Assembly: GCA_963702095.1 (NCBI GenBank)
Contig: OY969706.1
Coordinates: 2,688,001 to 2,752,000 of the forward strand
Origin: Candidatus Bathyarchaeota archaeon
GTDB lineage: Archaea; Thermoproteota; Bathyarchaeia; Bathyarchaeales; Bathycorpusculaceae
DNA: 64,000 bases
Direction: 5' to 3'
Part shown: positions 1,205 to 46,058 of the stretch, piece after piece
Position numbering within the stretch: position 1 is the first letter of the stretch
How the letters are laid out: each line of letters starts with the position of its first letter
The notes under the pieces: generated by a model
Seen by the model: only the letters and a program-made list of their open reading frames with translations
Told to the model about the DNA's origin: nothing
Databases searched by the model: none
Position numbers and translations under genes: made by a program

Positions 1205-1315
1205 CTCCACAACCAGCCAGCAACCCACCACAGACGCAGACGCCAAAATCCAACTCATAACACAAAGCATTGGTTGTTGTTGTGTATAGGGACTTTTCGG
1301 CAACAACTTCTATAG
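1205..1315 (+). repeat. intergenic repeat copy, module M3 followed by hairpin module M2 (1272-1315)
   Basis: ctccacaaccagccagcaaccc...gccaaaa then GTTGTTGTTGTGTATAGGGACTTTTCGGCAACAAC. Confidence 0.8.
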
Positions 1316-1327
1316 AAGAAAGGGGTT

Positions 1328-1415
1328 TGGTGCGGAGGGTGGGATTTGGACCCACGAACCCCTGCGGGATAAGAGCCTCAGTCTTACGCCTTTGACCATG
1401 CTTGGCGACCTCCGC
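1328..1415 (-). tRNA. tRNA-Leu(GAG) with encoded CCA
   Basis: Cloverleaf GCGGAGG acceptor, anticodon stem TAAGA/TCTTA with loop CTGAGGC, long variable arm, ends ACCA. Confidence 0.95.
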
Positions 1416-1716
1416 TAAACTACTACCATTTGAGGCTGCGCGGAGATATAGAAACATCTAGCCCAAATAAAGGCTTTACCGTAGAACAACGCCACTTAAC
1501 GATGAAGCCTTCGTCGAGTCCCATGTTTTTGAGGGCAAAAGAGTTTGCCCAACCGAAAAGTTGGGTTTAATTGATCAATCCTGTGCTAGCTACGGGCCGA
1601 TGCTTTTGGACCCGCATTAACGGTCACTATGTTTATTCTGCCGTGGCTGAATCATATGGTGGAAAAACAACACGTATTCCAAAAGGAATAAAACCACAGG
1701 GTACCCATTACTCATC

Positions 1717-2271
1717 GTGTTTCCAACCCTCGAAGACATAGCCAAACGCCGACGCCAACTCGGCCTAAAACAGTCCGAACTCGCCAAAGCCGCAAGCGTA
1801 AGCCAATCCCTCATAGCCAAACTCGAAGCAGGAACCATCGACTCATCCTACAGCAAAGTAAAAACCATCTTCGACGTACTCGAACGCTTAGAATTCAAAA
1901 CCAAAATCCAAGCAGAAAAAGTCATCCATAGCGAAGTTATAAGCGTCCAAAAAGAAGAGCATATCTCAGAAGTCGTCAAAGTCATGAAGGAACACGGTAT
2001 CTCGCAGATGCCGGTTTTTGATGGAAAACAATCCGTCGGCAGCATCTCTGAGAAAGCGATTCTTTACCAGATTTTGGCTGGCCAGGATTTAGAGGTGATT
2101 TCTAGGCAACCCGCGGAGAAGATTATGGAGGATCCTTTTCCCCAGATTAACGAGAACGCGCCGTTGTCTTTGATTACGAGTTTGTTGCAGAGTTATTCGG
2201 CGGTTCTGGTTTCTAGGAAAGGCGAGATTGTGGGGATTATTACGAAGGCTGACTTGCTTAGGATACTTTGA
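1717..2271 (+). CDS. XRE-type HTH plus CBS-pair transcriptional regulator
   Basis: RRRQLGLKQSELAKAASVSQSLIAKLEAG HTH; ISQMPV and GIITKADLL CBS motifs. Confidence 0.9.
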   Translation: MFPTLEDIAKRRRQLGLKQSELAKAASVSQSLIAKLEAGTIDSSYSKVKTIFDVLERLEFKTKIQAEKVIHSEVISVQKEEHISEVVKVMKEHGISQMPVFDGKQSVGSISEKAILYQILAGQDLEVISRQPAEKIMEDPFPQINENAPLSLITSLLQSYSAVLVSRKGEIVGIITKADLLRIL

Positions 2272-2419
2272 GGGCATTTTTTAAGTATGACTCCACTCTA
2301 CCGTGTATTGTTATGGTGCTTTTCTTTTGCGCGCCCAAAGAACGTGGTCTACGGGGCAACTGGAGGGCACCGAAAGATAGGCGCCAACTGTACCGGCGCA
2401 TTGAGAAGCGTGTGGCAAC

Positions 2420-3343
2420 ATGAAAATAAACAATACAGTGTTAGATACAATAGGCAAAACACCACTTGTAAAAATAAACAAGCTAACCGAAGGCATAGAC
2501 GCCGCCATAGTTGGCAAACTTGAATCCAAAAACCCCGGCGGAAGCGTCAAAGACCGCGTATGCAAAAGCATGATTGATGAAGCTGAAAAGCAGGGCATCA
2601 TAAAACCCGGCGCAACCCTTATCGAACCCACATCAGGCAACACAGGCATCGGACTCGCCATGGTCGCAGCCGTCAAGGGCTACAAGCTCATCTTAACCAT
2701 GCCTGAAACCATGAGCTTAGAACGCCGCAACCTCCTAAAAGCTTATGGAGCACAACTTGTCCTGACACCGGGACCATACGGAATGGGAGGCGCCATCAAA
2801 AGAGCCGAAGAACTCGTTGCCGCCACACCAGATAGCTTTATGCCGCAGCAATTCAAAAACCTTGCCAACCCCAAAGTCCACCGGGAAACCACTGGACCCG
2901 AAATCTGGGAAGACACCGACGGCAAAGTCGACATACTCGTAGCAGGCGTCGGCACAGGCGGAACCATCACAGGCGTTGCACAGTACATAAAACCCAAGAA
3001 ACCGGCTTTCAAAGCTATAGCTGTTGAACCTGCGGGTTCTCCAGTGCTTAGCGGAGGCAAAAAGGGCGCCCACATAATACAGGGCATCGGTGCGGGCTTC
3101 AAACCGGATGTTTTGCAGATGGAGCTTGTGGATGAAGTTGTGGAGGTAACCGATGAAGATGCACTTAAGACTGCTAGGGCGCTTGCGCAGAAAGAAGGTT
3201 TACTGGTGGGTATTTCTGCTGGCGCAGCGACTTGGGCAGCGCTGGAAGTTGCAAAGCGCCCGATAAACAAGGGCAAACTAATCGTGGTTATCCTGCCAGA
3301 TACAGGCGAACGCTACCTCAGCACGCCGCTTTTCAAAGAGTAG
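2420..3343 (+). CDS. cysK: cysteine synthase A (O-acetylserine sulfhydrylase)
   Basis: [12 protein letters not shown]-lysine motif, [23 protein letters not shown]. Confidence 0.95.
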
Positions 3344-3426
3344 GCGCATCTTCTAACATTTAACCATTTTTTTGTGACGCTTCTCTTATATCCACCCTCA
3401 GCCAATATTGAGGAAAGGGAAAAGAC

Positions 3427-4473
3427 ATGACTTCAAACCCCAACGAGCATCGACCAAAAGACTGCACTGAATGCTGCGAAAAAAACAGGGACCTTGACTG
3501 CTGGAACCCAGACCGCATGCTAGAAGTACTTATGAAAAACAACCATAATGTGGAGCGGGACTGGATGGTGCAAGGCATCCCCAAACTGGTAGACGACATA
3601 CTGGTCAGCTACGAAAGGTTCGGCAGCATGGAGCATATTGAAGGACGCGACCTTCCCTCCAAAAAAGTCGTCATAGAAGTATTAGACGACCTCTTCACTG
3701 TTCTTTTCCCAGGTTACATGGGGCCTCCTGAACTCACCCAAGCCAACGTCAAATACCATTTGGGCACAAAAATAACCTCAATCTACACGCGACTAACCGA
3801 CGAAGTAGAAAAAAGCCTAAAGTACATCTGCAGAAAAATCAGCGAGTGCCCACAGGACATATGCCAAAAACGTGCCCATGTCGTGGCGCGGGAACTGCTT
3901 GAAAAGCTGCCGGAGATTCGAGCTAAACTCAGCGGCGACATCGAAGCAGCCTACAGCGGTGACCCAGCGGCGGTCAGCACAGACGAAGTCATCTTAAGCT
4001 ACCCCTGTGTACTTGCAATAACCACTTACAGATTAGCCCATGAACTCTACCTTGAAGGCGTACCCTTGATCCCACGCATCATGAGCGAACACATGCATTC
4101 CTTAACAGGTATCGACATTCACCCGGGCGCGAAAATAGGCAAAAACTTCTTCATCGACCACGGGACAGGCGTGGTCATCGGCGAAACCACAGAAATAGGC
4201 GACAACGTCAAACTCTACCAAGGCGTCACGTTGGGCGCATTGAGTTTTCCAAAAGACGAAAAAGGCAATATTATCAAAGGCCGCAAACGCCACCCAACCG
4301 TGGGTAACAACGTCGTCATTTACTCTGGCGCAACCCTGCTTGGAGCAGAAACCGTGATCGGGGACAACGTCGTCATAGGAGGCAATGTCTGGCTGACGGG
4401 TCCTGTTGCTGCGGGAACAAGGATTACCATTGCAGAGCCTGAACAGAAGTATAAGATGGAAAACCACCACTAA
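3427..4473 (+). CDS. cysE: serine O-acetyltransferase (long EpsC-like form)
   Basis: [39 protein letters not shown] motifs. Confidence 0.92.
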
Positions 4474-4542
4474 GCTAAAAGTTACGTGGGCGGTTCCTCT
4501 TTAATCTGTCCTTGAATGTTTTTGTGAGAGGATTCTTTTCTT

Positions 4543-4718
4543 TCTTTATGTGGTGTGGCGTTTTGTGGGGTGCCACAAGACTGCAATTGGGCGCGGTTGC
4601 TTTTTGGGGTTACAATGGTTTTTGGCGTCTGTTACGGTGTGAGATAAGCGTTTTTCGCCACACGCCCAACATGGCTCTATGTTGAAGCCGCCCCCGTGTG
4701 GATGTGAAGGCATGCACC
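4543..4718 (-). repeat. ~175-bp intergenic repeat module M1, copy A
   Basis: Collinear with 36219, 42080 and 54121 copies; shared blocks ccatgt, gcgtgtgg, aaaaagcaaccg, caattgc, gtcttgtggca, cacataaa. Confidence 0.85.
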
Positions 4719-4816
4719 ATCCGGATTAACTCCGCAAGCCCCAACACGGGGAGAGTTCAATCAACAAAAAATCTTTGATCTACTGTTATTGAAGAAAAAT
4801 ACAGAAATAAGAGGAC

Positions 4817-5260
4817 TTAGAGTAGCCGAAAGTTTTCTTTAACCGTCGTCAACACTACATGCGTGTTTGTTCGCTCGATATAGGGCAGTGAAAGCAACTT
4901 CTTTGTGAATGCGCCTAGGTCTTCTCGACTCTTGAATTTGGCGACGATTATGGCGTCGGTTAATCCCGTGACATCGTAGACTCCGCAGACATTGGGGATT
5001 TTTGCGATTTCAGTTTCTGTCTCCATTAGTTTGCCTTTTGAAACGGTGATTTCAGTTAAAACGGTTAATTGGAAACCCAGTTTTTCATGGTCCAATATGA
5101 CTGAGTAACCTTTGATTAAGCCGTCGTCTTCCATTTTTTTGATTCTGGATAGGACGGTTCCCACGGATACGCCGACGTTTTTGGCGATTTGGCGGCTGGA
5201 GAACCTGGCGTCTTCTAGGAGCCCCTTGAGAATTTTTACGTCTGTTTCGTTTAATTCCAT
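4817..5260 (-). CDS. Lrp/AsnC family transcriptional regulator
   Basis: N-terminal HTH (DARFSSRQIAKNVGVSVGTVLSRIKKMEDDG) and YDVTG RAM domain. Confidence 0.92.
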   Translation of the reverse strand: MELNETDVKILKGLLEDARFSSRQIAKNVGVSVGTVLSRIKKMEDDGLIKGYSVILDHEKLGFQLTVLTEITVSKGKLMETETEIAKIPNVCGVYDVTGLTDAIIVAKFKSREDLGAFTKKLLSLPYIERTNTHVVLTTVKENFRLL

Positions 5261-9668: not shown

Positions 9669-9682
9669 GAACACAATAGCCA

Positions 9683-19164: not shown

Positions 19165-19165
19165 A

Positions 19166-19321
19166 ATGAACAAAACAAACTTTTTTCGAGAGGGCTCTAA
19201 AGTGCCCAAAAAAGAAGTGGAAGAGTTAAAAGAAGAAATAAACAGGCTAAAGCCGATACTTGAGAAAACAAGCATTGATGACGTAGTGAAGAACATAAAG
19301 GAAGACAGGGACAGCCGATGA
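19166..19321 (+). CDS. orphan VapB-like antitoxin fragment (51 aa; not in ORF track)
   Basis: ...INRLKPILEKTSIDDVVKNIKEDRDSR ending in an ATGA overlap typical of vapB-vapC junctions, but no vapC follows. Confidence 0.45.
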   Translation: MNKTNFFREGSKVPKKEVEELKEEINRLKPILEKTSIDDVVKNIKEDRDSR

Positions 19322-19329
19322 CAGCCCTG

Positions 19330-20278
19330 TCAATAGCGTCTGTCATTCCATCGGCAACCTTTACTGAAGTTAGTACAACCCCTATACCGTTCGCCTGTTT
19401 TTTGAGCAATACGCCAAACGAGTTTACCACCACAAACTGGGCAGTTACCAGCATCTTCATTTGAACTACTTATCTTCATTCGATGGTCTATCACATTTAC
19501 GATGAACTTCTCCTTATGGGCAAAGAAGAGAGGCAGATCATAAAGCTCGGTACTGCCCAGTGCAGAAAATTTGAGCGACTAATTTGCTTGCGTTGATTAA
19601 GCTGCTTATTTCGGTGCCTACGTTTTGAGCTAATCCGAGTTCTTGGAGCGCTTCGCGGACATGGCTGTCGGAAATACAGCATATTGCGGGGTGAAACTGG
19701 AACTGCCCGGCTTCTTTAAACTGTATTCTAAGCTCTCGGAATACAAGAAATAGTTTTACTTTAAGGTAAGCGTCGCCTGCATATCTTCTTGGGCTTCCAT
19801 TGAAGAGACTGCTGAGTTGCATTAGCCTGCTGGTATCGTTGTCCAGTACTCCAGCCCCCGAAAGGTATAAAATACATTTTATTTCGCGCCAAACAGACCC
19901 TTGAACACAATCGCCGTTTGCGATATAATCAAGCAGATTAAAAATCGCCGAATTTCCTATTTCACTACTTGCGAGTATTCTTAATTCATTATTAAGCTTT
20001 GGATCATTTTTCGCTTGTCTGAAATTCTCAATTGTGTACTTGTCTTTTATCGCTTGAAAAGCTTCGATACCTCTGTTTGTGCGGAGTGTTGGCTTATTAT
20101 TCCACAGGGACGCCAGTACAAACAGATGGAACAATCCATCTTCATCTATATCACCGTTTTTTTGCAATTCAATGCCAAGTAGGCTAGCCCAAGATTTTAG
20201 ACTGTTTTTATCAACAAATTCGCTATGTTCTTTGACGAACCATTCTGTTATTTCTCTACCGATTACTTCTGGGTTCAC
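19330..20278 (-). CDS. hypothetical HhH-glycosylase-like protein with C-terminal topoisomerase-type Zn ribbon, apparent frameshift near 19550
   Basis: KLFLVFREL and SDSHVREAL segments; removing one C continues YELYDLPLFF...CPVCGGKLVWRIAQKTGERYRGCTNFSKGCRW to a stop at 19330. Confidence 0.65.
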
Positions 20279-20356
20279 AGGTTTTTCCTCTCCTAGGAGT
20301 TATAGCCAACTAAAGAGTTAAATGCTTGTTCTTTAACACATTTAACTTGATAAAGC

Positions 20357-21178
20357 TTGCAGAAAAAAACGGTTTTTCCCAGAGACATTGTTCACATCAT
20401 TCCTTTGGGTCATGAGATAGATCGTGCAACGAAGGTATTTGATATTGCAAAGGCAAACCGCGCTTACATCTTAGCAACCATGGATACCTTTGGAAAACAC
20501 TCCGAAGCACTAGTTAAAGAACAAAAGTATTATACCGAAGAGGTTGTCCGAAAACTAGCGAAGAAAGGAATCGATATTATTGTCAAAAACGTCGATATGT
20601 TTGAAACCTCAGAGGTAATTCGTCAGCTCTCGGCAATTATTATCAGAGAAAAAGAAAGGAACAGCGATATTTCGATAAATATTTCCAGTGCAGGAAGATT
20701 AACTGCCGCTTTAGCTACGCTTGTGGCAATGGCGCATAAAGTAGACGCTTATTATCTAGAGGCAACCGCTTATCCTGAACGTCAGGAAGATCGAAAGATA
20801 CATGGATTAAGCATCTGTGATAGCTCCAAGATAAAATCTATTGAAAGCCTTCCAGTTGAGCTTCCCTTGCCACAAGAAATGGCAGTTCTAAAAGCTCTAA
20901 GCCAAAAATCGCCATTGAAACCCTACGAATTAATCCTATACCTAGCAAGAAACAATTTTCCGGGTTATCGAGAGCACGTACAGAGACTGGAAAAGGGCAT
21001 TCGCCGAAGCGACAAAGATTACGACGGAGTCTTGATTCCTTGCATGATGAAACTTAATAAGGGAATTTTAGAGAAACTAAAAACGAAAGGATATATTACC
21101 CGAGAAAAAGTTGGAAACAATAACTTAGTCGTACTACAGGAACCTGGAAGATTTGTAGCCTACTTTGCAGGCGACTAA
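20357..21178 (+). CDS. HFX_2341/DUF6293-like CARF-related domain plus winged-HTH regulator
   Basis: VHIIPLGHEIDR, INISSAGRLTA (CARF-like), C-terminal LEKLKTKGYITREKVG wHTH. Confidence 0.75.
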   Translation: MQKKTVFPRDIVHIIPLGHEIDRATKVFDIAKANRAYILATMDTFGKHSEALVKEQKYYTEEVVRKLAKKGIDIIVKNVDMFETSEVIRQLSAIIIREKERNSDISINISSAGRLTAALATLVAMAHKVDAYYLEATAYPERQEDRKIHGLSICDSSKIKSIESLPVELPLPQEMAVLKALSQKSPLKPYELILYLARNNFPGYREHVQRLEKGIRRSDKDYDGVLIPCMMKLNKGILEKLKTKGYITREKVGNNNLVVLQEPGRFVAYFAGD

Positions 21179-21261
21179 TAGAACGTGTTTATGCAAGCGA
21201 CTATAAAAAAGAGGTTTTTATATCGTTGCTGCATGATTTTAATGCAACGCGTTATAGCTTG

Positions 21262-21370
21262 CACAACCAGCCTGCAACCCAAACCAGACCCTGATGCCAA
21301 AAAGCAATTTTCTGCACAGCCAATTAGTTGTTGTTGTGTATAGGCGCTTTCCGCCAACAACAACTGATGA
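21262..21370 (+). repeat. intergenic repeat copy, M3 then hairpin M2 (21327-21370)
   Basis: cacaaccagcctgcaaccc...gccaaaaagcaat then GTTGTTGTTGTGTATAGGCGCTTTCCGCCAACAAC. Confidence 0.8.
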
Positions 21371-21460
21371 AAAACACCTAAATCCAGCCCTATTCCTACA
21401 GAAAAGTTAAATTAATTATGGCAAAGGATAATGTACTAACTGTTTGTGGAAGGTAACTTT

Positions 21461-24090: not shown

Positions 24091-24220
24091 CTCCACAACC
24101 AGTCTGTAACGCCTCTGGAAGCCTGAACCCAAAAAGCAATCCGCAACCATATCCGCTGGAAGATGATGAGTAAGGGAGGCTTCTCCTTCTTCTAACACTA
24201 AAAAAGCAGAGATAGGAAAG
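24091..24220 (+). repeat. intergenic repeat copy, M3+M4
   Basis: ctccacaaccagtctgtaac...aagcctgaacccaaaaagcaat...gaagatgatgagtaagggaggcttctccttcttctaa. Confidence 0.75.
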
Positions 24221-24313
24221 TCAGTGAAAGCAGCACAACCGCTGTATACAAAAGCATCGCCCGACCACGCAAAAACCACCTTAGATACTCTTATTTAACC
24301 AGCCTCGTTTAGC

Positions 24314-28991: not shown

Positions 28992-29118
28992 ACAGGAGAG
29001 ATTAAAACGTTTACTAGCTCAGTAACAGAATACGCTTGAAATCTTCTTTTCAGCGATTAAGCCAAAAAGAAGCTATTGCTGGATAAAGCTGAAATATTGA
29101 TACAAATATTACTTAGCC

Positions 29119-30255
29119 ATGGGAGATGTTGGCAAACCTTTTATCATCAGTTCTAAATTTAAGAGGCTAATACTAGTTACAACTCTGATTGGCTACGCAG
29201 CACTGATTTTTTATCTCCTCTACGTCGTGGGTATAACCCAGCTAATCAGTGTCATCCAAGAAGCAAACCCAGCATTCTACCTGATAGCCATTCTAAGTCT
29301 CATCGTTTCTATATTCTTCAACACTATCGTTTGGCGTCAACTTCTCAGTTCCCTTCAAATCAAAATTAGCCTGGGCAGGGCATTCAAACTGTACTGGGTC
29401 GGCATATTTGTAGACAACCTCATTCCCGGCGGCTGGTCAGGCGACCTCTTCAAGGCTTACCTGCTAAACAAGGACCCAAACATACAAAGCGGCAAAGCAG
29501 TCGCGTCTGTAGTCGCCAAAAACATGTATGAAGCCATATTCAACCTCGGCGGCATGATAATTGCACTTGCCCTTCTGCTATTGAACTACCGCTTGGAAAC
29601 TTCGCTGCTGATAGGTTTAGGCGGCATAATGCTGCTTCTCACGTTGCCGCTGGTAGCGCTGTTGCTAGCCAGTTTTAAACCAGTAGCAGCCAAAAAACTT
29701 GTAGGCCAATTCTTCAACGCATTAAGACGCATCTACAAAAACCCAGCCACTCTCACCAGCGTTGAAGACAAAGTGGACAAAGCCTTAGGCGACTACCACG
29801 ACGGCATGAATATCCTGCTTAAGAACCCCCACATGCTCATTAAACCCGTCATCTTCTCTTTTCTAGGCTGGTGCTTCGAAATCATCACCCTGCTCTTCGT
29901 GTTTGCTTCGCTTGCACAGTTAATTCCAATAGACAAAGTCATAATTGTTCACTCAATCGCAGGCAATGTGGAAGCGCAAGGATACGCTTTTATCGGCTAT
30001 GCCCAGATCATAACCAGCGAAATCTACCGTGCACTCGGCGTATCCTTTGCCGTCGGTGCTTCGGTGGCGCTTTTGGGTGGTGTTGTGATTTTCTTTTTGA
30101 AAACTGCCATTGCCTATACCACATTCCACTTTACCGTCATCTCGCCTAGAAACGGCAATCACCAGAAGGGCAGCGTGCAAAGTTCCACTTCAAAAGGCGA
30201 AGTGAAAGTTAACCAGCCGTTGTCTCCTGAGCAGGAAAATATAGAAGCGACATAG
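29119..30255 (+). CDS. lysylphosphatidylglycerol-synthase TM/UPF0104 flippase-like protein
   Basis: Multi-TM; GIFVDNLIPGGWSGDLFKAYLL signature. Confidence 0.8.
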   Translation: MGDVGKPFIISSKFKRLILVTTLIGYAALIFYLLYVVGITQLISVIQEANPAFYLIAILSLIVSIFFNTIVWRQLLSSLQIKISLGRAFKLYWVGIFVDNLIPGGWSGDLFKAYLLNKDPNIQSGKAVASVVAKNMYEAIFNLGGMIIALALLLLNYRLETSLLIGLGGIMLLLTLPLVALLLASFKPVAAKKLVGQFFNALRRIYKNPATLTSVEDKVDKALGDYHDGMNILLKNPHMLIKPVIFSFLGWCFEIITLLFVFASLAQLIPIDKVIIVHSIAGNVEAQGYAFIGYAQIITSEIYRALGVSFAVGASVALLGGVVIFFLKTAIAYTTFHFTVISPRNGNHQKGSVQSSTSKGEVKVNQPLSPEQENIEAT

Positions 30256-30382
30256 TTACTAGGAGAGTTAGTCTTGGTTGACCATTGCGGAAATGTTTAT
30301 TTCTGATGTTTTAGGGGTTCTAAAGATAAATACTTAATAGAGAGAGCATCCAAGTTGATACTCCGCTGGAGAGTAAATAAGA

Positions 30383-32128: not shown

Positions 32129-32139
32129 AAAATGTCTGT

Positions 32140-32278
32140 TCTGCTTGCGGGTTACGCTCAAGCAGTCTGCAAGTCCCCCCTGCAAGCCTGAACCAAAAAA
32201 GCAAACCACCCCAAAGTCCCCGAGAAGAAGATGAATAAGGGCAGCATTCTCTTCTTCTTAACTAGAAAAACAGAAACT
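32140..32278 (+). repeat. intergenic repeat copy, M3+M4
   Basis: ttctgcttgc...cagtctgcaa...tgcaagcctgaaccaaaaaagcaa...gaagaagatgaataagggcagcattctcttcttc. Confidence 0.7.
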
Positions 32279-35720: not shown

Positions 35721-35785
35721 AAGAAATCGGTGATTGCTGCTGGTTTAGACTCGACATGCACACCCTTTTTATTGCTTCTTGCATT

Positions 35786-35900
35786 GGTTTGCTGGGGCTC
35801 TGGAACCCGTTTAATGAAGATAAGAGTGGAAAATGCAACTAAACCATTCTTCTACAACCGCGGCTACGTTAGTTATATCCAGAACCCACTCAGCCCACAT
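35786..35900 (+). mobile_element. 115-bp MITE-like element, copy 1
   Basis: 114/115 identical to 38081-38195; imperfect terminal inverted repeats GCTG(A/G)GGCTCTGGA ... TCCAGAACCCACTCAGC. Confidence 0.7.
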
Positions 35901-36218
35901 GCCTTTTTCCGCTGCCAGCAATACCGATTCTCTAATTTGTTGCCGTTAGGTCGTTAGCTAATCCATTTTTGGGTATGGCTTTTTCAATGACAAAATTCGT
36001 TTTTAGATATGGAGCAGTGGTTTGTTTGAGATGTGGCTTATAGCTGGCGTTTTTGGTTTGTTATGTTAACTTTTTGTTTGGTTTTTTTCTGTGGTTAGAT
36101 TGCTTATAGGACGGTTTGGGTTTTTGGGGTGTTGGAGTCGATTTTTCGAGTGGGCAATGATAGTGCCCGCTTGCATTGTGCTGATCATTGCTGTTACTGC
36201 CACGCTAAGAAAGCAAAT

Positions 36219-36489
36219 GATACATGCTTTCACACACACATCCAGTCCGGCCCCTGCATGGAACCATGTACCGCGTGTGGAAAAAAACGCATTTCTCACA
36301 CTGAAACAGACGCTAAAAAACGTTGCAACCACAAAAAGCAACCGCATTCAATTGCAGTCTTGTGGCATGCCGTAAACCGCCACCCCCACATAAAGACAAA
36401 GATGATCTCAGTCTCTTAGGGGGACGCTGGAAGCAGCAAACCGCTGGTTGTTGTTGTGTATGGGGAGTTTTCGGCAACAACTACTAATA
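36219..36489 (+). repeat. repeat module M1 copy B (36219-36396) followed by hairpin M2 (36446-36489)
   Basis: Most similar to reverse complement of 54121-54297; then GTTGTTGTTGTGTATGGGGAGTTTTCGGCAACAACTACTA. Confidence 0.85.
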
Positions 36490-36506
36490 AAAAAAGCCGA
36501 AGGCAG

Positions 36507-38000
36507 CTACAAGAAACCTTTGAAGCGTCTAGCCGCTGCATCCACGATTTTGAATTCAACTGGAAAACTAAAGTATCGGTGCTTCCAGCGGTACCGTGCC
36601 ATCTGATTCATCAGTGCATAGGCAAATTTGAAGGCTAAGGCGCGTTCCCTTATCCTTGCCTGAGGGTAGAAAGCAATACGCGTAACCGCGGAGATGGTGT
36701 GCAGTTTTTGGTTTTGCGCTTTTGTGTGCCAGGGCGGGTCAAAGTGAAAGACGTTGATGTTGCCCCATTCCTCCAGCGTCTGTGGCGCCGTAAACTCGGA
36801 GGGCAAAGAATCCATAACTGGACTTGGAAAAGGCGTGTAAACAAAGATCCCATAGTGCTGAGTTTTAGGGTTAATTTGGCTCATTTTATCCATTAAATCA
36901 AACGTTTCGGTTAGGTCCCCGTCGGTTTCGGTTGGCAAGCCACTCATCCATGACACGTAAGGCTCAATCGAAGGCGCAAACCGCCTCAGGTTCTCGAGGG
37001 ACTGCAACATCTCGTCAGCCGTTACATCTTTGCAAATCAACGTTTGTAGGCGCTCCGAGCCGGATTCCCCGCCAAAATCCAGTTCTACGCATCCTGCTTT
37101 CTCAAGCAACTCCAAGAAATCCTTGCTGTAGTTGGCTAAATAGTCGAATCTGCAGTTAGCTCGCCATTGCACCCCGAGGTTTCTATCCAGTAAGCCTTGG
37201 CAGATTTGTTTAACGCGGTATTCATCGACGAAAAAGTTGTCGTCTATGGGATCGATTATTTTTATGTGTGGATATTTTTGTATGACCCATTGGATTTCAT
37301 CTAGGACTCGGTTGGGACTTTTCCCCCGCCATTTGGTGTGGTTGAATCGAGAGTTGTAGCAGAAACCGCATCTGTGGGGGCAGCCACGGCTGGTTTGGAT
37401 GTGGAAACGTCCTGCTCTAAAAGACGGATACCGATCTAGGAGGAGAAGGTCATAGGGTAAATTCAAGGGTATATCGTCGAGATTGATTACTTTTCCATCA
37501 GGAGTGCTTTTGATTGTTTCGTTCACTTTATAGGTTAAACCTAAAACCTCATCTAGCGGCTGGTCTTCTAAAAGGGCGTCGGCAAGGTCTTTGACGACTA
37601 ATTCACCCTCGCCGCGAACCACTATGTCGACGTATTCGTTGCTTGCCGTTTGCTCTGGCAGCAATGTAGGGTGGACGCCGCCCCAAACGATGGGAACATA
37701 GGACGCCTGCAAACGCACGTACCTTGCAAATTCGAGGGCATATCTTATCTGTTGGCCACTCATGGCGCTTATACCCACAAAGAGGGAACTGCCGACGTTG
37801 TAGTGTCGGTAGTCTTCTAGGCGCATGTCAAGCAGGCGAACTTTGTAGCCTTCTTGCTGCAACGAAGAAGCCAAGTAGAGGAGGGCAAGTGGAACTTGAG
37901 GGTCTGAGGCACGGTATTTGCCGGGGTAGACTAGGAGAATCTCCTGATTACCGTTAGAGTTAGTGCATGAACGTGAAGAACATGATTGAGCGCTGAACAA
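36507..38000 (-). CDS. B12-binding radical SAM protein (class B methyltransferase-like); start uncertain
   Basis: PLALLYLAS, WGGVHPT, GEGE, TSRGCPHRCGFC, DDNF, GGESGS, GLPTET. Confidence 0.9.
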   Translation of the reverse strand: MFSAQSCSSRSCTNSNGNQEILLVYPGKYRASDPQVPLALLYLASSLQQEGYKVRLLDMRLEDYRHYNVGSSLFVGISAMSGQQIRYALEFARYVRLQASYVPIVWGGVHPTLLPEQTASNEYVDIVVRGEGELVVKDLADALLEDQPLDEVLGLTYKVNETIKSTPDGKVINLDDIPLNLPYDLLLLDRYPSFRAGRFHIQTSRGCPHRCGFCYNSRFNHTKWRGKSPNRVLDEIQWVIQKYPHIKIIDPIDDNFFVDEYRVKQICQGLLDRNLGVQWRANCRFDYLANYSKDFLELLEKAGCVELDFGGESGSERLQTLICKDVTADEMLQSLENLRRFAPSIEPYVSWMSGLPTETDGDLTETFDLMDKMSQINPKTQHYGIFVYTPFPSPVMDSLPSEFTAPQTLEEWGNINVFHFDPPWHTKAQNQKLHTISAVTRIAFYPQARIRERALAFKFAYALMNQMARYRWKHRYFSFPVEFKIVDAAARRFKGFL

Positions 38001-38080
38001 AAACCGAAAAAGCCTCTAGAAACACTATTCGAAACAGCACTATTAACCGTTACTCAAAACCGACGTCTGCACATATAGAG

Positions 38081-38195
38081 GGTTTGCTGAGGCTCTGGAA
38101 CCCGTTTAATGAAGATAAGAGTGGAAAATGCAACTAAACCATTCTTCTACAACCGCGGCTACGTTAGTTATATCCAGAACCCACTCAGCCCACAT
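38081..38195 (+). mobile_element. 115-bp MITE-like element, copy 2
   Basis: Direct repeat of 35786-35900 with one mismatch. Confidence 0.7.
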
Positions 38196-38262
38196 TTCTT
38201 CTTCTCTTATGCTTTGTTCCCAAAAAAAGGGGAAGGAAAATGTTTTGTTGGTTTATGCATGC

Positions 38263-40886
38263 TTATGGTCGTTTTCTAATCATCAATGCCAGTATCACAC
38301 CGACAATGACAATGACGATTATGATTGCAACGCCGATGGCAGCGATGGTCATAGTGTTATCGACAGGTTGCGCTGTTACTTGTGTTGGTGCGGGTGTTGC
38401 TGCGTCGCCTGCATAGAAAGTTGTTGAAGCGGATGATCCGTAGTACGAATTAGATCCTGCGAAGCTTGCGATAACGTTGAAGTTGCCTGAGATGTCGGGG
38501 GTCCATGTGAATGCATAGTTGCCATACGCGTCTGAAGTAGCGGTGCCGATTTGTCTAAAGTTGCCGTTTGCATCGACTACGCTGATGGTAACTGGAACTC
38601 CAGTTGTATTTGCGGGGATTGGCTGTTGCTGATAGAGGTATTCCATAAATTGACTTTGGCTTACGTCAGATACGCATGGAACGCCGTTTGGAAATAGCGG
38701 CCTGTTCTGTTTGTTGTGTGCCTGCGGATTTGTCGATTACAGTTCCCCTTATTGTTATTGGGGTAGCTGTGCTGACGCCAACATCAGGTGCGGTAACGGT
38801 CAAGGCGCTTGGGCCCTTTCCGAAGCAGTATATTTGGTCATCATATGCGTTGAGTGTTACAAGATAGCCATCAGTGACAATTGTTCCCACCTGTCCCCAA
38901 CATTCTTCTTTCCATATTTCCTGTCCGTTGGTTGCGTTGATGCAGCGAATATCCGAACCACGCCATTGGGGATTCGTTGGAGTGTGCTCAGACGAAATGG
39001 TATATATCTTTCCATCGGCAGCAGCGACTATGTTTAGGGGGTAATTGCCATAGGGAGATTCAGTGGCAGTGCCAGTAGCGGTGTAATTCCACAAGACTTG
39101 TCCGGTTGTGTCATCGTAGCAGAATAGTACTCCAGCGTAGCCAGCTGAATACATCTTGCCGTCAGCGACTATAGTAGTTAGAGCATTTGAGCCTTGCACA
39201 AGAAAATCTAAATCTGGTTGACTCGGAGTTGGACCCCATAACAGCTTTCCAGTGTTCAGGCTGTAGCCAGACCATGTCCTAGTTTCCTTGTCATATATTG
39301 TCCAGACACCGGTACTTGGGTCCATAGGTCCAAAGCTTAAGGTTTGGTTGCCTGGTGGCGCAGTGTAGTTCTGATTAAACAGTATAGTTCCTCGGTTTGA
39401 TGATTGTAGGTTTATAGCAAATACTGACCAGGGATCGTTGGTTCCGACCGTAGTCCCTCCACTTGCGGCGGGTGCCGGGTTTAGACCACCTGTACCAACT
39501 ATTTCGACGGGGTCTACGCTTGTTGGCCAGCCGTTGCCTGCTAGAACTCTTGCTATTTTTGCGGTTGAAGGTATTGAGCCTGCTGCCAATGTTATGTTCC
39601 AATCATATCCATATTTAGCTCCATCATATGTTGCATTAGGCTGAGGTCGCCAAATTGTGAGAACAACCCCAAAAGGCCCGAGAGGTGTGGTTTGAATGCA
39701 AGTAGTTGAGTTCCATTGAGCCAGCCAACCTAACGTAGTTGCAGTTGGTGCTTTTAGCACGTAAATTAATTCATTGCCCGCTTGATCTACATATCTTGTC
39801 CCTGTTGGCGCGTTATTGATTTGGCATATGTAATTGCCTGAGGAAGCATCGAACATTTGCCATGTTGATCCTGAAGTGCTCCATAAGTATGGAAATACAC
39901 CGTGTTGATTTGATGATTCATAGTTTAATTCTTGACCAAATGACAGTGCTGGCCAATATGTTGAAGCCAAGTTTGTTGCAGAAAATAACGACGGAAGAGT
40001 GCTATTCGTAAATGATAGTTTTTGCCCTGTCACCAAGTTTACTGAATACCAGCCGTTTCGTGGGTTGTTTAAGTTGTTGTAGTATAGGACGCCATTCATG
40101 ACAAATCCGTACCATCTGGGTTCATATGTTACTCCATAGAAATACTCGTTATTTCCAGCGTTTCCTCCTGCGACGGCCTCCAGCCCATATTGGGCTTGTC
40201 CACATTACGTGACCGCTCTCTGGTGCCGTTGAGTATGGGTTGAGCAGTGTTCCTGCAGCGTCGTAACCAGTTTCAATCCAATCGCCTGTGATAGTTGCCC
40301 ATTGCCTATTCATACCATTTATTGGTCGTGTCCAGTACTCTGTTGGAAGCGGAGTTTCTTGCCAAGCTTGAACGAGTTGATTCTGTACGTTTACTGAGAT
40401 TTTATCACTAATGGATGGGCCAACATAATAGTTGTAATTGACGCCATTTAGAGTTGTGTTATATGTTTGTCCGGGGAAGCTAAATTGGAAATAGTATGTG
40501 CCGTTTGTTTTAGGAACGTAGGTGGTGTAAGTCGATCCAGTTGGATCAGACGTAAATGGACCTAGTGTATCAGTGGTACCGTCTGGTTTAGTTACGTTCA
40601 ACATAAAGCCGCCTAGTTGCGGGTATGAGTATGGTGCAATATTTTGAATCCATGGAGCTGATGAGTCAAGAAGCATAACAACAAGCAGGTTTTGGTCAAC
40701 GCCTACTGGATTAGGTGTGCAGTTTATGTACGCATACGAGGCTTTGTAATAATCTATTGAAGAAGCAGCGTTAGTGTTTGGCAGTGAAATCATTGAAGCG
40801 ACTATTGAAAGCACTAGAATCATAGCAATTGCGATAGTTACAGTTTTATTTTTTGCAGAATAATTTCTTTTTATATTTTTTAACAT
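38263..40886 (-). CDS. large secreted PQQ-like beta-propeller protein with C-terminal TM anchor; apparent frameshifts near 40170 and 38690
   Basis: Signal peptide, PNPVGV, PLPTEYWTRPI, repeated G..LW/Y..TG motifs, YD.QIYCFGKG, TGVPV, TM plus RKRP; three ORFs join in register. Confidence 0.85.
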
Positions 40887-41110
40887 TGTCTTTTTTTCCT
40901 TTTTTTCTGTAAGAAACAGATGCCCTCAATTTTACATTTAAGAAAGCGTGGTGTATCCCAAACACAACAAATTTAGTAATTTAGAATTTAAGCGCTGTTT
41001 TCTTCAAAATTAAAACAAACTTGTCACCAAATAATAATTCATTCATTCTTCTAGATAAGAGAGTCACAATTCGAAAACATTAAATAATAATTCTACAAAT
41101 TACGCGTAGA

Positions 41111-41938
41111 ATGACTAATTTAAAAGCAGATAGTAACAATGCAGAAATATTAGAAAAGATAGGGTTAACTTCGTTGCAGGCAAGAATCTACACCGCTTTA
41201 GGCTATTCAGGAAAAGAAAAAATATTAACGATCTCAAAGATAGCCAACGTAGACCGATCAAACACATATCGGACAATTCTACAACTTCAAAATATGGGTT
41301 TGGTTATAAAATTACTGGGGACACCAAACTCTTATGAAGCAGTGCCTTTGAAAGAAGCCGTCTCAACTTTGGTTAATCGCAAAAAAAGCGAATACGAAAA
41401 AACACAAAGTATTGCACAGAAATTAATCCAATCAAACTCCGAACTATTTTCGGCATCTCAAGGAAAAGAATATGAGTTTAAAATAGTTAAGAAGACCAAA
41501 GAACCGGCCAAGGAAGCAATGATTGATACATACAGGAATCTCCAAAAAAGTAATGATTACATACTCAAGAAGAAGACAGTTATTGAGGCGTATAGTGAAT
41601 TAACCGAAGAAGGATTAGCATGCCTTAGACGAGGAATAAAATTCAGAGTTATTACTGAAAAGGTAGCATCACGATCCATCCTAAAAGAACTTGGCCTTTT
41701 TATATCAGAGCCCAACTTCCAATTAAGATACATTCTCAAAGAACCCGAGGCAGAAATAGTTATCAATGACAAGAAAGTTGCCAAAATCACGCTGACACCA
41801 AATTTAGGATTAGCAGAAAAGCCGACCTTAATAACGGATCACCCAGTTGTTGTAAAAATATTCCAAAATCATTTTGACAATTTATGGAAACATGCAAAAG
41901 AGTATAATTTAGAAGAATTAAAAGGGCAAAAACCTTGA
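41111..41938 (+). CDS. TrmB family transcriptional regulator
   Basis: IGLTSLQARIYTAL, ISKIANVDRSNTYRTILQLQNMGLV wHTH; IVINDKK...FDNLW PLD-like sensor domain. Confidence 0.88.
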   Translation: MTNLKADSNNAEILEKIGLTSLQARIYTALGYSGKEKILTISKIANVDRSNTYRTILQLQNMGLVIKLLGTPNSYEAVPLKEAVSTLVNRKKSEYEKTQSIAQKLIQSNSELFSASQGKEYEFKIVKKTKEPAKEAMIDTYRNLQKSNDYILKKKTVIEAYSELTEEGLACLRRGIKFRVITEKVASRSILKELGLFISEPNFQLRYILKEPEAEIVINDKKVAKITLTPNLGLAEKPTLITDHPVVVKIFQNHFDNLWKHAKEYNLEELKGQKP

Positions 41939-42079
41939 AAAAGAGTTTGACAAGACCAACTTTTTTAAAGTTAGTTCGATTCGGTTTATTTTTTGTGACG
42001 GCCTAATTTATCTCTAATGGTTATGCTGATCCCCAATTGCATAGTGCTACTCATTGTCTTGTGGAGGAAAAAAGCTGTC

Positions 42080-42442
42080 GATACATGCCTCTACATTCAC
42101 GCTGTTGCCGCTTCAACATGGACCCATGTATCGCGTGTGGAGAAAATCGCATATCCCACACCATAACAGTTGTTGAAAAACGTTTCATTCGCAAAAAGCA
42201 ACCGCCTTCAATTGCAGTCTTGTGGCACCCACAAATCGCCACACCCACATAAAAGAAAAACAGGTTGCACTTTGGGTAAGGGAGGCTAGTAGAGAAATAG
42301 TGGTTGGCTTGTGTGTCTTCTGCTTGCAGAATAGCCACAACTAACCAACAGATGCCTAAACTAGCCAAACCCCAAACAGGCGCCAAAACGCAGTCTGCTG
42401 GTTGTTGTTGTGTATAGGGGTTTTCTGCAACAACTACTAATG
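42080..42442 (+). repeat. composite repeat: M1 copy C (42080-42255), partial M3 (~42317-42345), hairpin M2 (42400-42442)
   Basis: Block-wise identity to the other copies; shows the module order M1-M3-M2. Confidence 0.85.
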
Positions 42443-42508
42443 AAAAAAGAAAACTGTGTAAACATAAGCATAACAAACAAGAAAGAAAATAAAAGAAGAA
42501 AAGGTTGA

Positions 42509-43669: not shown

Positions 43670-43689
43670 AAGTCAAGCCTTCTATGTGC

Positions 43690-43950
43690 TTAGAGTATTC
43701 CAAGTTTGATTGCGACATCAGAAGCTCGGTATTCAGGTGTGAGCTTCACGTAGGCTTTTTTGATGCCTTGAGGAGTGATGAGCAAGTTGACTTTTTTGAC
43801 TTTAACCTCGTACATGGTTTCTACTGCACGTTTAATGTCGGCTTTGTCAGCATCTTTATTGACAATAAAGATTAACTTGTTGTCTTTTTCAACCATTATG
43901 CTGGCTGATTCTGTCATCAGGGGGTAATTGATTATTTCATCTGGTTTCAT
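43690..43950 (-). CDS. rpl23p: 50S ribosomal protein L23
   Basis: PLMTE, NKLIFIV, KKAYVKL. Confidence 0.96.
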   Translation of the reverse strand: MKPDEIINYPLMTESASIMVEKDNKLIFIVNKDADKADIKRAVETMYEVKVKKVNLLITPQGIKKAYVKLTPEYRASDVAIKLGIL

Positions 43951-44735
43951 TGTGAGGTCTCTCCATGGAGGCTTGATAGCTTTTCGATTGCACCATTAGT
44001 CCAAACTGTTAATCGACCCGGATGTGTTCCTGGTGCAAGCATTTCAGTGTTAAGGTTCGTTACGGTAGTGACTTCTACGCCGGGTAGGTTGCTGGCTGCG
44101 TTGGCTAAGCTTTTTCCGTCAACCACTATGATGAGTGGGCCAACGGCTTGCTTCATCTTTCTGCCCCGGTGCTTGCCTTTTCCTGCGCGGATGCCACGGC
44201 TTTCTTTCACGCGGACCATTTCAGCTGTGAAGCCGAGGCTGTTGAAGACTTCTTCGACTTCTTTGGCTTTAGATAAGCCTTCTAAAGCGTTATCTACTAT
44301 TAGGGGTAAGCTGAGGACTTGCTCGATTTTGTGTCCGCGTGCTGCAACGACTTCTTTTTCTGCGGTTGCTGCGATAGCGGATGAGAGGGCAAGTTTGGCT
44401 TCTTTTTTTGGTATGTTTTTTACTATTATTTTTTCTGCTCGTGGAGGATGGGGTTGTCTGCCTTTGACTGTGCTTGGAGCAAAGGCTGCTCTTCCACTGC
44501 CGCCTTTTACACGGGGGACTCTTGCAGTTGCGCTGCCTGTGCCGCGTGATTCTGCGGTGGTTTTCTTTCCAGCCATTGGATCTCTGCCTTGGGGTTGGAG
44601 CCTGTTAGATTGGATGGCTAAGACTGCACGTTTAATCACGTCGGGTCTTAGCGGTGTTGAGAAAACCATTGGTAAATCGATTTTGCCCGTGGATTTTCCC
44701 TGTAAGTCAAAGATTTCTGCGGTTTTCTGTGCCAT
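43947..44735 (-). CDS. rpl4p: 50S ribosomal protein L4
   Basis: RPDVIKRA, AESRGTG.ATARVPR, RAGKGKHRGR, LAPGTHPGRLT. Confidence 0.96.
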   Translation of the reverse strand: MAQKTAEIFDLQGKSTGKIDLPMVFSTPLRPDVIKRAVLAIQSNRLQPQGRDPMAGKKTTAESRGTGSATARVPRVKGGSGRAAFAPSTVKGRQPHPPRAEKIIVKNIPKKEAKLALSSAIAATAEKEVVAARGHKIEQVLSLPLIVDNALEGLSKAKEVEEVFNSLGFTAEMVRVKESRGIRAGKGKHRGRKMKQAVGPLIIVVDGKSLANAASNLPGVEVTTVTNLNTEMLAPGTHPGRLTVWTNGAIEKLSSLHGETSQ

Positions 44736-44747
44736 CTCTAATCATTC

Positions 44748-45760
44748 CTATTTCCGTTGAGTGGACTCCAGTGAGATATAAGTTACTTGCGGTGCTGCTT
44801 CAGGAACCTCTGTGGGCGGACGAGCAGGTACTCTTAGGCGTATTAAGCGTTTTTCTGTGCCGGGTATGCTGCCTTCTAGTAGGACGTATGGTCCATTGAC
44901 CTCTCCATATCGGACGTAGCCGCCTTTTATGGTGACTTCTTTGCCGTCTTTGCCGATTTTGAGTATGCGTTTGTTGAATTCGATACGTTGGTGATAGCCT
45001 GTTTGTCCTGCGCGTGGTATGCTGTACATGAGGTGGTGGGGGTTCCATGGTGGAGGGTGGCGATGCCGCGTTTGGTTTTTCTGCCTTTGTGCTGGAGTTT
45101 GGTTACGTGCCAGCGTTTAACTGGGCCTTGGAAGCCTTTGCCGACGGTTACGCCGGCTATGTCGATGTATTGGCCTTCTTTGAAGACTTCTTCGGGCGTT
45201 ACTGTTTTGCCCAAGAGTTGTTTGGCGTAGTCGAATTGTTGCTGGGTGTTTCCGCCGCCGATTTGGATTTCCATGGTTTCGGGTTTTTTCTTGGATAGGC
45301 TGGTTTGGCTGGGTTGGGTGGCGGTTATAACTCGGACTAAGTCGGTGTTTTCGAGGTTGTCTTGGACTTTCTGCAGCATGGCGTCTGTGTTAAAGTTTTC
45401 CGGCAGGACCAAAAGTCTGCCCAGCAGTGCCGGCGGTTCTTTCATCCATGCTTCTGTGAGGTTTAAGAGCCCATAGGGTGTTTTCTGGTAAGTGCGTATG
45501 CCACATATGATGATTGGTGGCGTTTCAAGTATGGTTGCTGCCCGCATGACTTCTTTACCGAAGTTTGGTGAACGCTTCCTGTCCTCAATAGTGAAGACAT
45601 AGGTCATACCTGCCTTGTAAGATGTGAATCCTAAAAGCCTAGGAGTTTCAGACTCTATTTTTGGCCAGTAACGAATCCGTGCAGTAGGTTTCTTTGCACG
45701 ATGCCTTGGCAAATAGGCTAGTGAACCATGTTTTGGAGCATGAGTTTTACGATGTCCCAT
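44748..45760 (-). CDS. rpl3p: 50S ribosomal protein L3, apparent frameshift near 45050
   Basis: PKHGSLAYLPR, YKAGMT, GKGFQGPVKRW; continues PRAGQTGYHQR, GSIPG in the second frame. Confidence 0.95.
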
Positions 45761-45950
45761 TGATCATCCGCTTCGCGCCTTTAGCAAATAGTGCAAGAGG
45801 TTATAAATGTTGCCGTTTAAAACGCAAAAGGATGGTTAGGCTGAAAAAAAACATTTTCTAAGCTCCAGCCTAGTATAGGATGCTGTTTGCCTTCAGTGGC
45901 TGTCCATCGTTTGCAACACTACACATAGAAACGGGTGCTTTTGACTTTTT

Positions 45951-46058
45951 CTATAGTAGTTGTTGCCGAAAACCCCCTATACACAACAACAATCAGAGGC
46001 TTGTGAAAACGATTGTATTTCAACATTGGCGTTTGGTTTACGTTGCAGACTGGTTGTG
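45951..46058 (-). repeat. intergenic repeat copy, M3 (46026-46058) then hairpin M2 (45951-45993)
   Basis: Reverse complement cacaaccagtctgcaacg...attgttgttgtgtatagggggttttcggcaacaactactatag. Confidence 0.8.

Follow-up and report, generated by a model that had tools for sequence, protein, structure and literature searches.

Orphan, modular intergenic repeats are described in enterobacteria (ERIC/IRU) and in Streptococcus pneumoniae (BOX) (PMC2759123, PMC3184786), and the REP and REPIN elements are described as being mobilised by RAYT (Y1 HUH) transposases (PMC3116915, PMC3733652). Here we analyse a 64,000-nucleotide (nt) stretch of a Candidatus Bathyarchaeota archaeon genome (assembly GCA_963702095.1, contig OY969706.1), called the window below, in which a recurrent hairpin, GTTGTTG...CAACAAC, forms the 3' module of a non-coding repeat of ~140 nt and is not a free-standing site. 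The window is G000:C1:2688001-2752000, inside a single 2,937,366-bp contig (a closed genome, G000; other G numbers denote genomes compared with it). Bathyarchaeia are abundant, mostly uncultured archaea whose genome dynamics are poorly known, and we found no literature joining Bathyarchaeia and "miniature inverted-repeat".

ERIC and BOX repeats are generally understood to be 100 to 170 nt long, non-coding and almost exclusively intergenic, with tens to hundreds of copies, stem-loop potential, recombined modules, a lineage-restricted distribution and no cognate transposase in the genome. The repeats described here are likewise non-coding, of similar length, multicopy, intergenic, modular, able to form a stem-loop and lineage-restricted, and no transposase was found for them among the families searched. 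They differ in being archaeal, in having no sequence similarity to ERIC or BOX, and in a strictly fixed length with two variable spacers. Their 3' hairpin arms swap compensatorily between subfamilies, and they are documented here at inversion junctions. As REP and REPIN elements are generally described, the likeness extends to hairpin-forming extragenic repeats without terminal inverted repeats or target-site duplications, with selection on cis-sites and a frequent arrangement in inverted pairs. However, REPs measure 20-40 nt, have a GTAG/CGTC head and share the genome with a RAYT, whereas the present unit has 140 nt and G000 has no Y1_Tnp.

Classical MITEs (miniature inverted-repeat transposable elements; DDE-derived, e.g., Correia/NEMIS and Sulfolobus SM) are also small, non-autonomous, multicopy, intergenic and polymorphic in their insertions. 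By their usual definition they have terminal inverted repeats and target-site duplications, neither of which was found here. A cognate insertion sequence with the same ends was not found in G000 among large repeats and five enzyme families; DDE transposases were not searched.

The hairpin belongs to a repeat of about 140 nt

The 19-nt hairpin core GTTGTTGTTGTGTATAGGG, allowing up to three mismatches, matched the window five times (1273+, 21327+, 36447+, 42401+ and 45975-45993 on the minus strand). Dinucleotide shuffles gave a chance expectation of 0.02, and none of 100 shuffles reached five. An earlier note on this DNA had listed these five copies (c1 to c5 in Table 1) at positions that agree with ours within 1 nt, and the CAACAAC downstream arm and A-rich tail that it reported are present in 5/5. 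Genome-wide, the hairpin motif (up to two mismatches) had 63 matches, as opposed to 8 for the reversed control. After two of 62 motif matches were dropped because they lacked both flanking features, 60 curated TTG copies remained, which share the whole ~140-nt unit with almost no insertions or deletions and have unrelated flanks. Their layout is tcTGCTTG - N10 - CCACAACCAGCCTGCAAC - ~20 variable - CAAAA.GCA - ~18 variable - CTGG - TTGTTGTTGTGTATAGG - loop - CAACAACAAC - TAtAGAAAAAA. The matrix of TTG copies comprised 58 rows, c3 and copy 2047975 being excluded.

A search restricted to the 5' block (block B) gave 156 matches in the genome, recorded as 48 TTG, 85 AAG and 6 other hairpins; a few hybrids are among the matches. 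The AAG sister hairpin reads GGAAGA[AT]GA[AT]GAG[TC]AAGG...CTTC[AT]TCT...CTAGAAAAA and follows the same 5' module as the TTG type. The family is modular: one 5' module is joined to either a (TTG)3/(CAA)3 or an (AAG/ATG)3/(CTT)3 hairpin, hybrids exist, and the general layout is tcTGCTTG - N10 - CCACAACCAGCCWGCAAC - ~20 nt variable - CAAAA.GCA - ~18 nt variable - CTGG - hairpin - CTAKAGAAAAA. With a profile built from both types, nhmmer found 182 copies in the 2.94-Mb genome, 175 at E <=1e-10 and 167 near full length, which cover 24.4 kb or 0.8% of it. Of the 182, only 7 have most of their length in a called gene, compared with a coding fraction of 0.786 (crude gene caller), and the TTG copies are intergenic in 60/60. 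Nine members fall in the window: five TTG, three AAG and one consisting of the 5' module only.

The element is non-coding, with a ratio of nonsynonymous to synonymous polymorphism (pN/pS) of 0.79-1.03 across all six frames. Relative to their neighbour genes, the 60 TTG copies are placed same/same in 18 cases, convergent in 15, antisense in 15 and divergent in 12; among all gene pairs, 62.5% are co-directional, 18.7% convergent and 18.7% divergent. All five window copies follow a same-strand gene. Since orientation is unbiased genome-wide, this picture of a 3' untranslated region is not general, and a 3'-UTR or terminator element was rejected. The same counts limit the proposal of the earlier note that the hairpin is a polar marker of accessory/core junctions, which describes the window and not the genome at large.

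Near-identical pairs of copies in G000 are identical over ~130-170 nt, and the identity ends at the element borders (eight such pairs and one truncated pair, picked by eye from listings). A strict count (>=90% identity over 150 nt) gave three pairs, two inverted and local and one direct. Adjacent elements overall are inverted in 73 cases and direct in 77. In about 10 copies the A-run is followed by the motif TTTGATCCACYGWTAWATAGGG, which is AT-rich and has a TATA-box-like look (3' flanks of G000:C1:173700, 474660, 1201760, 1369370 and 2462480).

The modular layout also accounts for the report that the hairpin is always preceded by one of two other repeats, M1 or M3, and never followed by them. 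M1, which we take to be the motif CCACAACCAGCCTGCAAC..., is evidently the 5' module of the hairpin's own ~140-nt unit and for that reason always comes first. M3, matched to our repeats in the same way, is probably a separate family of ~180 nt, D5, with >100 BLAST matches in the genome and many in G007. D5 lies 65-93 nt upstream of the element in the same orientation in 6/139 elements and 445 nt upstream in a seventh; downstream it was found in 0/139. The 3' part of D5 resembles the start of the 140-nt element (TCTTGTGG...).

Gain and loss between species

Of 100 other genomes of the genus, 34 contain block B, in about 1 to 97 copies, and about 13 genomes have at least seven; the reversed control gave 0 everywhere. 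G000, G005, G007, G129, G158, G182, G185 and G192 are rich in elements, and complete genomes free of them include G001, G003, G012, G013 and G019. Outside the genus, 4 of 80 other genomes of the taxonomic family (about 70 genera) had one match each. Among 41 genomes searched, the TTG hairpin is abundant only in G000 (51), G005 (27) and G007 (71). Public contigs carrying the 5' block are metagenome-assembled genomes of Bathyarchaeia, and the bacterial matches, single each, look like chance. An initial guess at an ammonia oxidiser was dropped; AmoA had no match, in a search whose control had none either. The repeat family does not extend beyond part of a single Bathyarchaeia genus, and copy numbers run from roughly 0 to 100 per genome. 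Upstream of rpl3 in G012 (locus L004), an element-free relative, there are different hairpins of the GTTGTTGTTG...CAACAAC type; more divergent family members may therefore have escaped strict patterns.

Occupied and empty sites were compared in relatives, a check proposed in the earlier note, and exact empty sites were found for c1, the element at 32137-32278 and others. Copy c1 separates a PIN gene's stop codon from the 3' end of tRNA-Leu(GAG). Its site is occupied in G000 and G007 and exactly vacant in G005, with 3 nt from the PIN stop to the tRNA-Leu end. The site of 32137-32278 is empty in G001, with flanks 5 nt apart, and in G005, with overlapping flanks. A 785-nt insertion at 35727-36510, made of two other repeats and the c3 hairpin, is absent in G007, where the flanks abut. 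At c2, G001 is empty, G007 has a complete element without cargo, and in G000 a 2.1-kb insert replaces the first ~20 nt of the element. Copy c4 is common to G000 and G007 only, and c5 is present in G005 and at a contig end of G007 and absent in G001, G012 and G008. Between species of one genus, copies have come and gone at precisely defined intergenic sites.

Elements at inversion and island junctions

The whole window was mapped onto one long contig (C3) of G001. Window 1325-23995 is antiparallel to G001:C3 734413-709905, 24324-35726 and 42456-45831 are parallel to 634497-648349, and 49677-63995 is antiparallel to 703845-689762. Repeats of the element or D5 families are found at 6/7 window breaks. 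G001 and G005 lack the island at 35727-42455; positions 35726 and about 42456 are separated there by roughly 400-670 nt. On the 3' side of c4, homology to G005, G001, G012 and G008 resumes 2-19 nt on (window 42456-42473). Copy c5 borders both a terminase islet and a rearrangement breakpoint. Thus, window copies do stand at synteny breaks: at the c2 cargo, at the island edge (c4), at the c5 breakpoint and within the 785-nt insertion (c3).

A 23.6-kb segment (545-24071) is inverted between G000 and G007, and in a four-junction alignment both junctions coincide with element 3' ends. The G000 junctions are Sright-E2-Y and Sleft-E1-X, and those of G007 are Sleft-E1'-Y and Sright-E2'-X. Each element, including its copy-specific hairpin, stays with its own 5' (inner) flank, and the exchange therefore took place within about 20 nt of the 3' tails.

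Four identical inverted pairs were tested against six relatives. Taking the left flank as reference, the interior of 1119600/1128155 has the reverse orientation in G007, G001 and G012; a single G007 contig shows this, and one junction there has no element. For 2776839/2782431, the interior is inverted in 5/5 informative relatives, and the single element of G007 shows precisely both "old" junctions that would be predicted had copy 2 arisen with the inversion. The pair 991148/996925 is inverted relative to the left flank of G007 only. With two of four pairs clearly inverted, one inverted against G007 only and one not, replicative inversion was rejected as the sole origin of identical inverted pairs. 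At 1119600/1128155, the single element of G007 is oriented opposite to the prediction of this model.

Cargo lies 5' of the element at c2, c4, c5, 2622714, 200881 and 991148 and 3' once (c3), a small count that was not gathered blind. At 2620072/2622714, the 5' side faces a 2.9-kb segment lacking in G001, G012 and G005. The suggestion that the hairpin is the terminus of a mobile element with cargo is supported only in part, as to mobility and the mostly 5' position of the cargo; what the hairpin terminates is not a large element with cargo but the 140-nt unit, which usually inserts alone. A 2.9-kb segment is duplicated at 87% identity (G000:C1:197822-200718 and 988056-990947). It starts exactly at an element 5' end, replaces that element's hairpin and is followed ~140 nt later by a full element; its opposite strand codes for two proteins, secreted or membrane-bound, which are degraded in the second copy.

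Structure of the 3' hairpin

Folded as RNA (+ strand), the window hairpins form an 8-12-bp stem at -8.2 to -17.0 kcal/mol (z -0.4 to -3.6), with an energy clearly below that of their own shuffles in only 4/5. Covariation was evaluated in an alignment of 33 hairpins, of which the window supplied 8 and other Bathyarchaeia genomes 25. Across a 10-bp helix, 84.2% of the cells are paired as opposed to 69.4% in shuffles (0/500 as high), 43 cells have changed on both sides where 18.6 are expected (0/500 shuffles), and U-A to A-U swaps are seen in 6/10 base pairs of the helix. Most of this signal comes from the TTG/AAG split, so the independent events are few. A control slid by -3 scores equal to the true register, as would be expected of arms that have a 3-nt period.

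In G000, the two arms of an element form 8.18 of 10 Watson-Crick pairs, compared with 6.67 when the 3' arm is taken from a random element, and oppositions on the element strand are G·T in 88 cases and A·C in 27; both statistics describe essentially G000 alone, as only three copies from other genomes were kept. The G·T excess is suggestive of a single-stranded form of the element strand, with the better-conserved 5' arm as a confounder.

Helices other than the 3' hairpin have no support. RNAalifold found no consensus structure, mutual information among the variable columns gave no Watson-Crick pairs, and a stem between blocks A and B showed no supporting covariation (p=0.24). An inner loop stem is weakly supported (p=0.0145, one pair), and single-sequence folds are mutually inconsistent. 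Long-range RNA structure was rejected on the absence of a consensus and of covariation in variable columns and on the disagreeing folds. Rfam 15 matched only tRNA in the whole window at the gathering score and nothing in 42290-42470 at E up to 1.

Search for a mobilising enzyme

The closed genome G000 has no Y1_Tnp (PF01797), TnpB domain (PF07282), RVT_1, IS110 Transposase_20 or Y2_Tnp; DDE transposases and tyrosine and serine recombinases were not searched. As a positive control, PF01797 matched in 6/14 genomes. Across 101 genomes of the genus, reverse transcriptase is found in 11, IS110 in 37 and Y2 in 11, and none of them tracks the element-rich genomes. RVT_1 is absent from G000, G005 and G007, and none of its 11 genomes is element-rich. 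Y2_Tnp is absent from G000 and, among the genomes listed, from the element-rich G005 and G007; none of the 11 Y2 genomes is element-rich. Co-occurrence with HUH/Y1 genes, which the earlier note had raised, did not hold for G000, which has no Y1 or Y2 gene.

These results bear on several known systems. In IS200/IS605 terms, the absence of PF01797 and PF07282 and a supported hairpin at the 3' end only set the repeat apart from PATE and omega-RNA. It resembles the ends of IS91/ISCR, Helitrons and attC, as commonly described, in having one hairpin end with a short motif (CTAG/CTAT/CTAA, cf. Helitron CTRR), variable DNA on the other side and neither terminal inverted repeats nor target-site duplications. 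Unlike IS91 and Helitrons, it has no Y2 transposase in G000, and most copies carry no gene. Unlike integron attC, the copies are dispersed and not arrayed, and inspection by eye found no RYYYAAC/GTTRRRY cores as these are usually given; IntI was not searched. A retro-mobilised element like the short interspersed elements (SINEs) would fit the A-run, but RVT_1 is absent from G000, G005 and G007.

Other origins were tried as well. An autonomous partner among the large repeats of G000 was rejected: they encode PQQ/NosD surface proteins, asparagine synthase, a GT2 glycosyltransferase and unknown proteins. A CRISPR-like origin was rejected, since scanning the genome by k-mers revealed no array. A tRNA-linked integration site was set aside, as no more than 5 of 60 copies have any of the 41 tRNAs within 600 nt. 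In IMG/VR, block B had 15 single exact matches, about chance by rough calculation, and the hairpin motif had 0. A gene family in three copies (G000:C1:650439-652146, 1112601-1114273 and 232177-233136) encodes proteins of ~320-330 aa at about 84% DNA identity. It has no Pfam or NCBIfam match and a weak match to a PHROG 'transcriptional regulator'; a 185-aa neighbour stands beside two of the copies.

Features of the window

The coordinates of the elements, the D5 copies and the breaks are collected in Table 1. The two c2 cargo genes encode a 246-aa protein without a Pfam match and an HFX_2341_N/DUF6293 protein. The island that ends at c4 contains a B12-binding radical SAM gene, other genes and a TrmB regulator (Pfam), and the adjoining rps19 is the last gene of a ribosomal-protein operon. 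Two 124-nt direct repeats, 97% identical (35786-35909 and 38081-38204), bracket the c3 hairpin and the B12-binding radical SAM gene (36507-38000).

The terminase islet (46185-48837) holds a T4-type large terminase (47002-48447, minus) and small open reading frames. Homologues of the terminase are 83-85% identical in G005 and G007, and G005 has several weaker copies. The break at 29014-30326, the sole one without a recognised repeat, comprises one 378-aa gene that is present in G000 and G007 and absent from G001 and G005. Compared with G001, the D5 copy at 54114-54260 has the look of a clean insertion. Elsewhere in the genome, ARAGORN calls a tRNA with a four-base anticodon loop at G000:C1:1235811-1235888 (ttcg, 'tRNA-???').

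Table 1. Elements, D5 repeats, cargo and synteny breaks in the window (positions counted from its first nucleotide)
Feature	Position	Strand	Remarks
E1, AAG-type sister element	401-541	-	One end of the 23.6-kb segment whose orientation differs between G000 and G007
c1, TTG-type element	1196-1321	+	Hairpin 1272-1310; nhmmer E 7e-24
Break versus G001	4470-4820		D5 copy
D5 copy	4541-4714	-	Second intergenic repeat family
Cargo of c2, 2.1 kb, two genes	19165-21256		Inserted at 5' edge of c2; absent here in G007 and G001
Break versus G001	19165-21443		Cargo and c2
c2, TTG-type element	21257-21377	+	5' block A missing (first ~20 nt); upstream of RFC small-subunit gene (rfcS)
Break versus G001	23995-24324		Element E2
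E2, AAG-type sister element	24073-24212	+	Other end of inverted segment; also rearrangement breakpoint versus G001 and G005
Break versus G001	29014-30326		1.3-kb gene, no known repeat
AAG-type element	32137-32278	+	Clean ~150-nt insertion; nhmmer E 5e-20
Variable island	35727-42455		c3 at left, c4 at right; absent in G001 and G005
Break versus G001	35727-42455		Island, c3 and c4 at ends
D5 copy	36257-36394	+	Second intergenic repeat family
c3, hairpin module only	36438-36497	+	nhmmer model positions 79-138; D5-family repeat precedes
D5 copy	42058-42263	+	Second intergenic repeat family
c4, full TTG-type element	42317-42454	+	Right edge of 6.7-kb island; just past rps19 stop codon
Break versus G001	45831-49677		c5, terminase islet, truncated copy
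c5, full TTG-type element	45934-46077	-	Between terminase islet and rpl3 promoter
Truncated copy, 5' module only	48923-48988	-	nhmmer model positions 5-70, E 3e-9; with c5 brackets terminase islet, direct orientation
D5 copy	54114-54260	-	Second intergenic repeat family

Origin of the family

The family is probably an orphan, modular, non-autonomous mobile repeat, with the blocks and the 3' hairpin as its cis-sites and with dispersed copies that drive or mark inversions and island insertion. Our verdict is an orphan repeat like MITEs, ERIC and BOX that behaves as a hotspot of recombination. The conserved blocks and the hairpin would be the cis-sites needed for copying, which would explain why they are nearly invariant while the fixed-length spacers drift. 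The mobilising enzyme may be an unrecognised or host-encoded protein acting on the hairpin end. Dispersed copies would then serve as recombination substrates, flipping DNA between inverted copies, and recombining copies would make their surroundings hotspots for cargo.

Several observations weigh against such a mobile repeat. No transposase was found among the five transposase and reverse transcriptase families tested in G000, and its large repeats contain no recognisable or multi-copy transposase gene. Terminal inverted repeats are absent on inspection: the consensus ends, gtTCTGCTTG... and ...CTAgAGAAAAA, share only TTCT when reverse-complemented. Nor was there a target-site duplication in 139 copies scanned (k=3-8, all plausible boundary offsets), where the earlier note had suggested looking for one at the junctions; the best signal was a 3-mer in 10/139 copies against 2 expected. 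The identical inverted pair 2620072/2622714 shows no inversion. Blocks and spacing are conserved near-perfectly across species that are only 70-90% identical, which could reflect a cellular function or gene conversion instead.

Same-site copies pose a further difficulty. In core genes, third codon positions of G000 and G007, its closest relative, are 72-85% identical, and yet copies at the same site in the two genomes do not resemble each other more in their variable columns than copies taken at random do. The figures are 35% identity against a background of 35% for c1, and 35% against 42±8% for c2 (rank 40 of 48); c5 ranks 3 of 48, and c4 was left out of this comparison. Simple vertical descent of neutral insertions therefore does not fit. 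Together with the opposite-oriented G007 element at 1119600, the dissimilarity points to repeated insertion at hotspots or replacement by conversion. Turnover faster than neutral was set aside as unexplained and not shown.

The crossover placed at the 3' end and the side bias of the cargo underlie another explanation, a sharper form of the proposal in the earlier note, which we hold to be unlikely: that a putative hairpin-directed recombinase or nuclease crosses over or cleaves at the hairpin and its CTAG-A-run end, so that exchange between two such ends inverts or relocates DNA and cargo gathers on the 5' side. In its favour, the crossover of the 23.6-kb inversion lies within about 20 nt of the 3' end and not in the longer conserved 5' module, although homologous recombination followed by divergence or conversion can mimic such a placement. 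The rearrangement relative to G001 and G005 is likewise bounded by the 3' ends of E2(+) and c5(-), and homology to relatives without c4 resumes 2-19 nt past its 3' end. The excess of 5' cargo (six copies against one) agrees with this explanation, subject to the small, unblinded count. The arrangement 5' module, ~2.8 kb of cargo, full element occurs three times (48988..45934(-), 197822-201000 and 988056-991250; the last two are mutual duplicates), but the truncation points of three 5'-module-only copies differ. Moreover, most copies are solitary 140-nt insertions without cargo, and no candidate recombinase was found, tyrosine and serine recombinases being outside the search.

A structured small-RNA gene family, regulatory or guide-like, is less probable still. 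The blocks would be its scaffold, the two fixed-length variable segments would confer specificity, and dispersal would be secondary. Such a role would suit the fixed spacing with almost no indels, the hairpin covariation, the excess of G·T (88) over A·C (27) on the element strand, the better folding of the + than of the - strand (c1, -11.6 versus -5.9; c4, -11.3 versus -6.4 kcal/mol) and the conservation of the blocks across species. It does not sit well with a random orientation to genes, the many genomes of the genus that have no copy, the lack of an Rfam match, whether at the gathering score or with E up to 1, or the lack of Watson-Crick covariation in the variable columns and the block A/B stem. 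Elements have no conserved promoter upstream, and the hairpin is followed on that strand by an A-run in place of a T-run. Mini-genes for ~33-aa peptides ending GCCCV* (TTG type), with the TAG stop in the hairpin loop, are disfavoured and very improbable. Five of five window copies do read ...GCCCV in one frame (...TTSLQP...GCCCV*), this frame has the fewest stops (11 in 48 TTG and 13 in 85 AAG copies over 27 codons), and conservation has a weak 3-nt periodicity (p=0.019 for TTG, 0.16 for AAG). However, pN/pS in the frame is 0.79 (TTG) and 0.95 (AAG), with other frames equally good; there is no conserved start, and an in-frame ATG open reading frame of >=30 aa exists in only 8/46 copies. The TAA of the AAG-type loop is often CAA and lies in another frame. 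Cys and Val codons never vary synonymously, which places the constraint at the nucleotide level. Peptide coding was rejected on pN/pS, the missing starts and the in-frame stops, which occur in 12/46 copies.

Significance

Should the hairpin and its CTAG/A-run end prove to be the crossover site of a new hairpin-directed recombination system that copies the unit, flips DNA and loads accessory genes on the 5' side, for which we see only a slim chance, Bathyarchaeia would have, in dispersed form, their own counterpart of attC- or rolling-circle-type ends, with a new enzyme as its driver. As a probable mobile orphan repeat, the family offers a tractable case for tracing a mobilising enzyme. The elements break short-read assemblies of relatives, as seen in G007, where contig ends fall in elements. 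They mark inversion and island junctions beside core genes, namely the ribosomal-protein operon, rfcS and a tRNA, and are therefore a practical marker for plastic regions. The compensatory swap of hairpin arms and the crossover at the 3' end are concrete handles for finding the enzyme that mobilises them.

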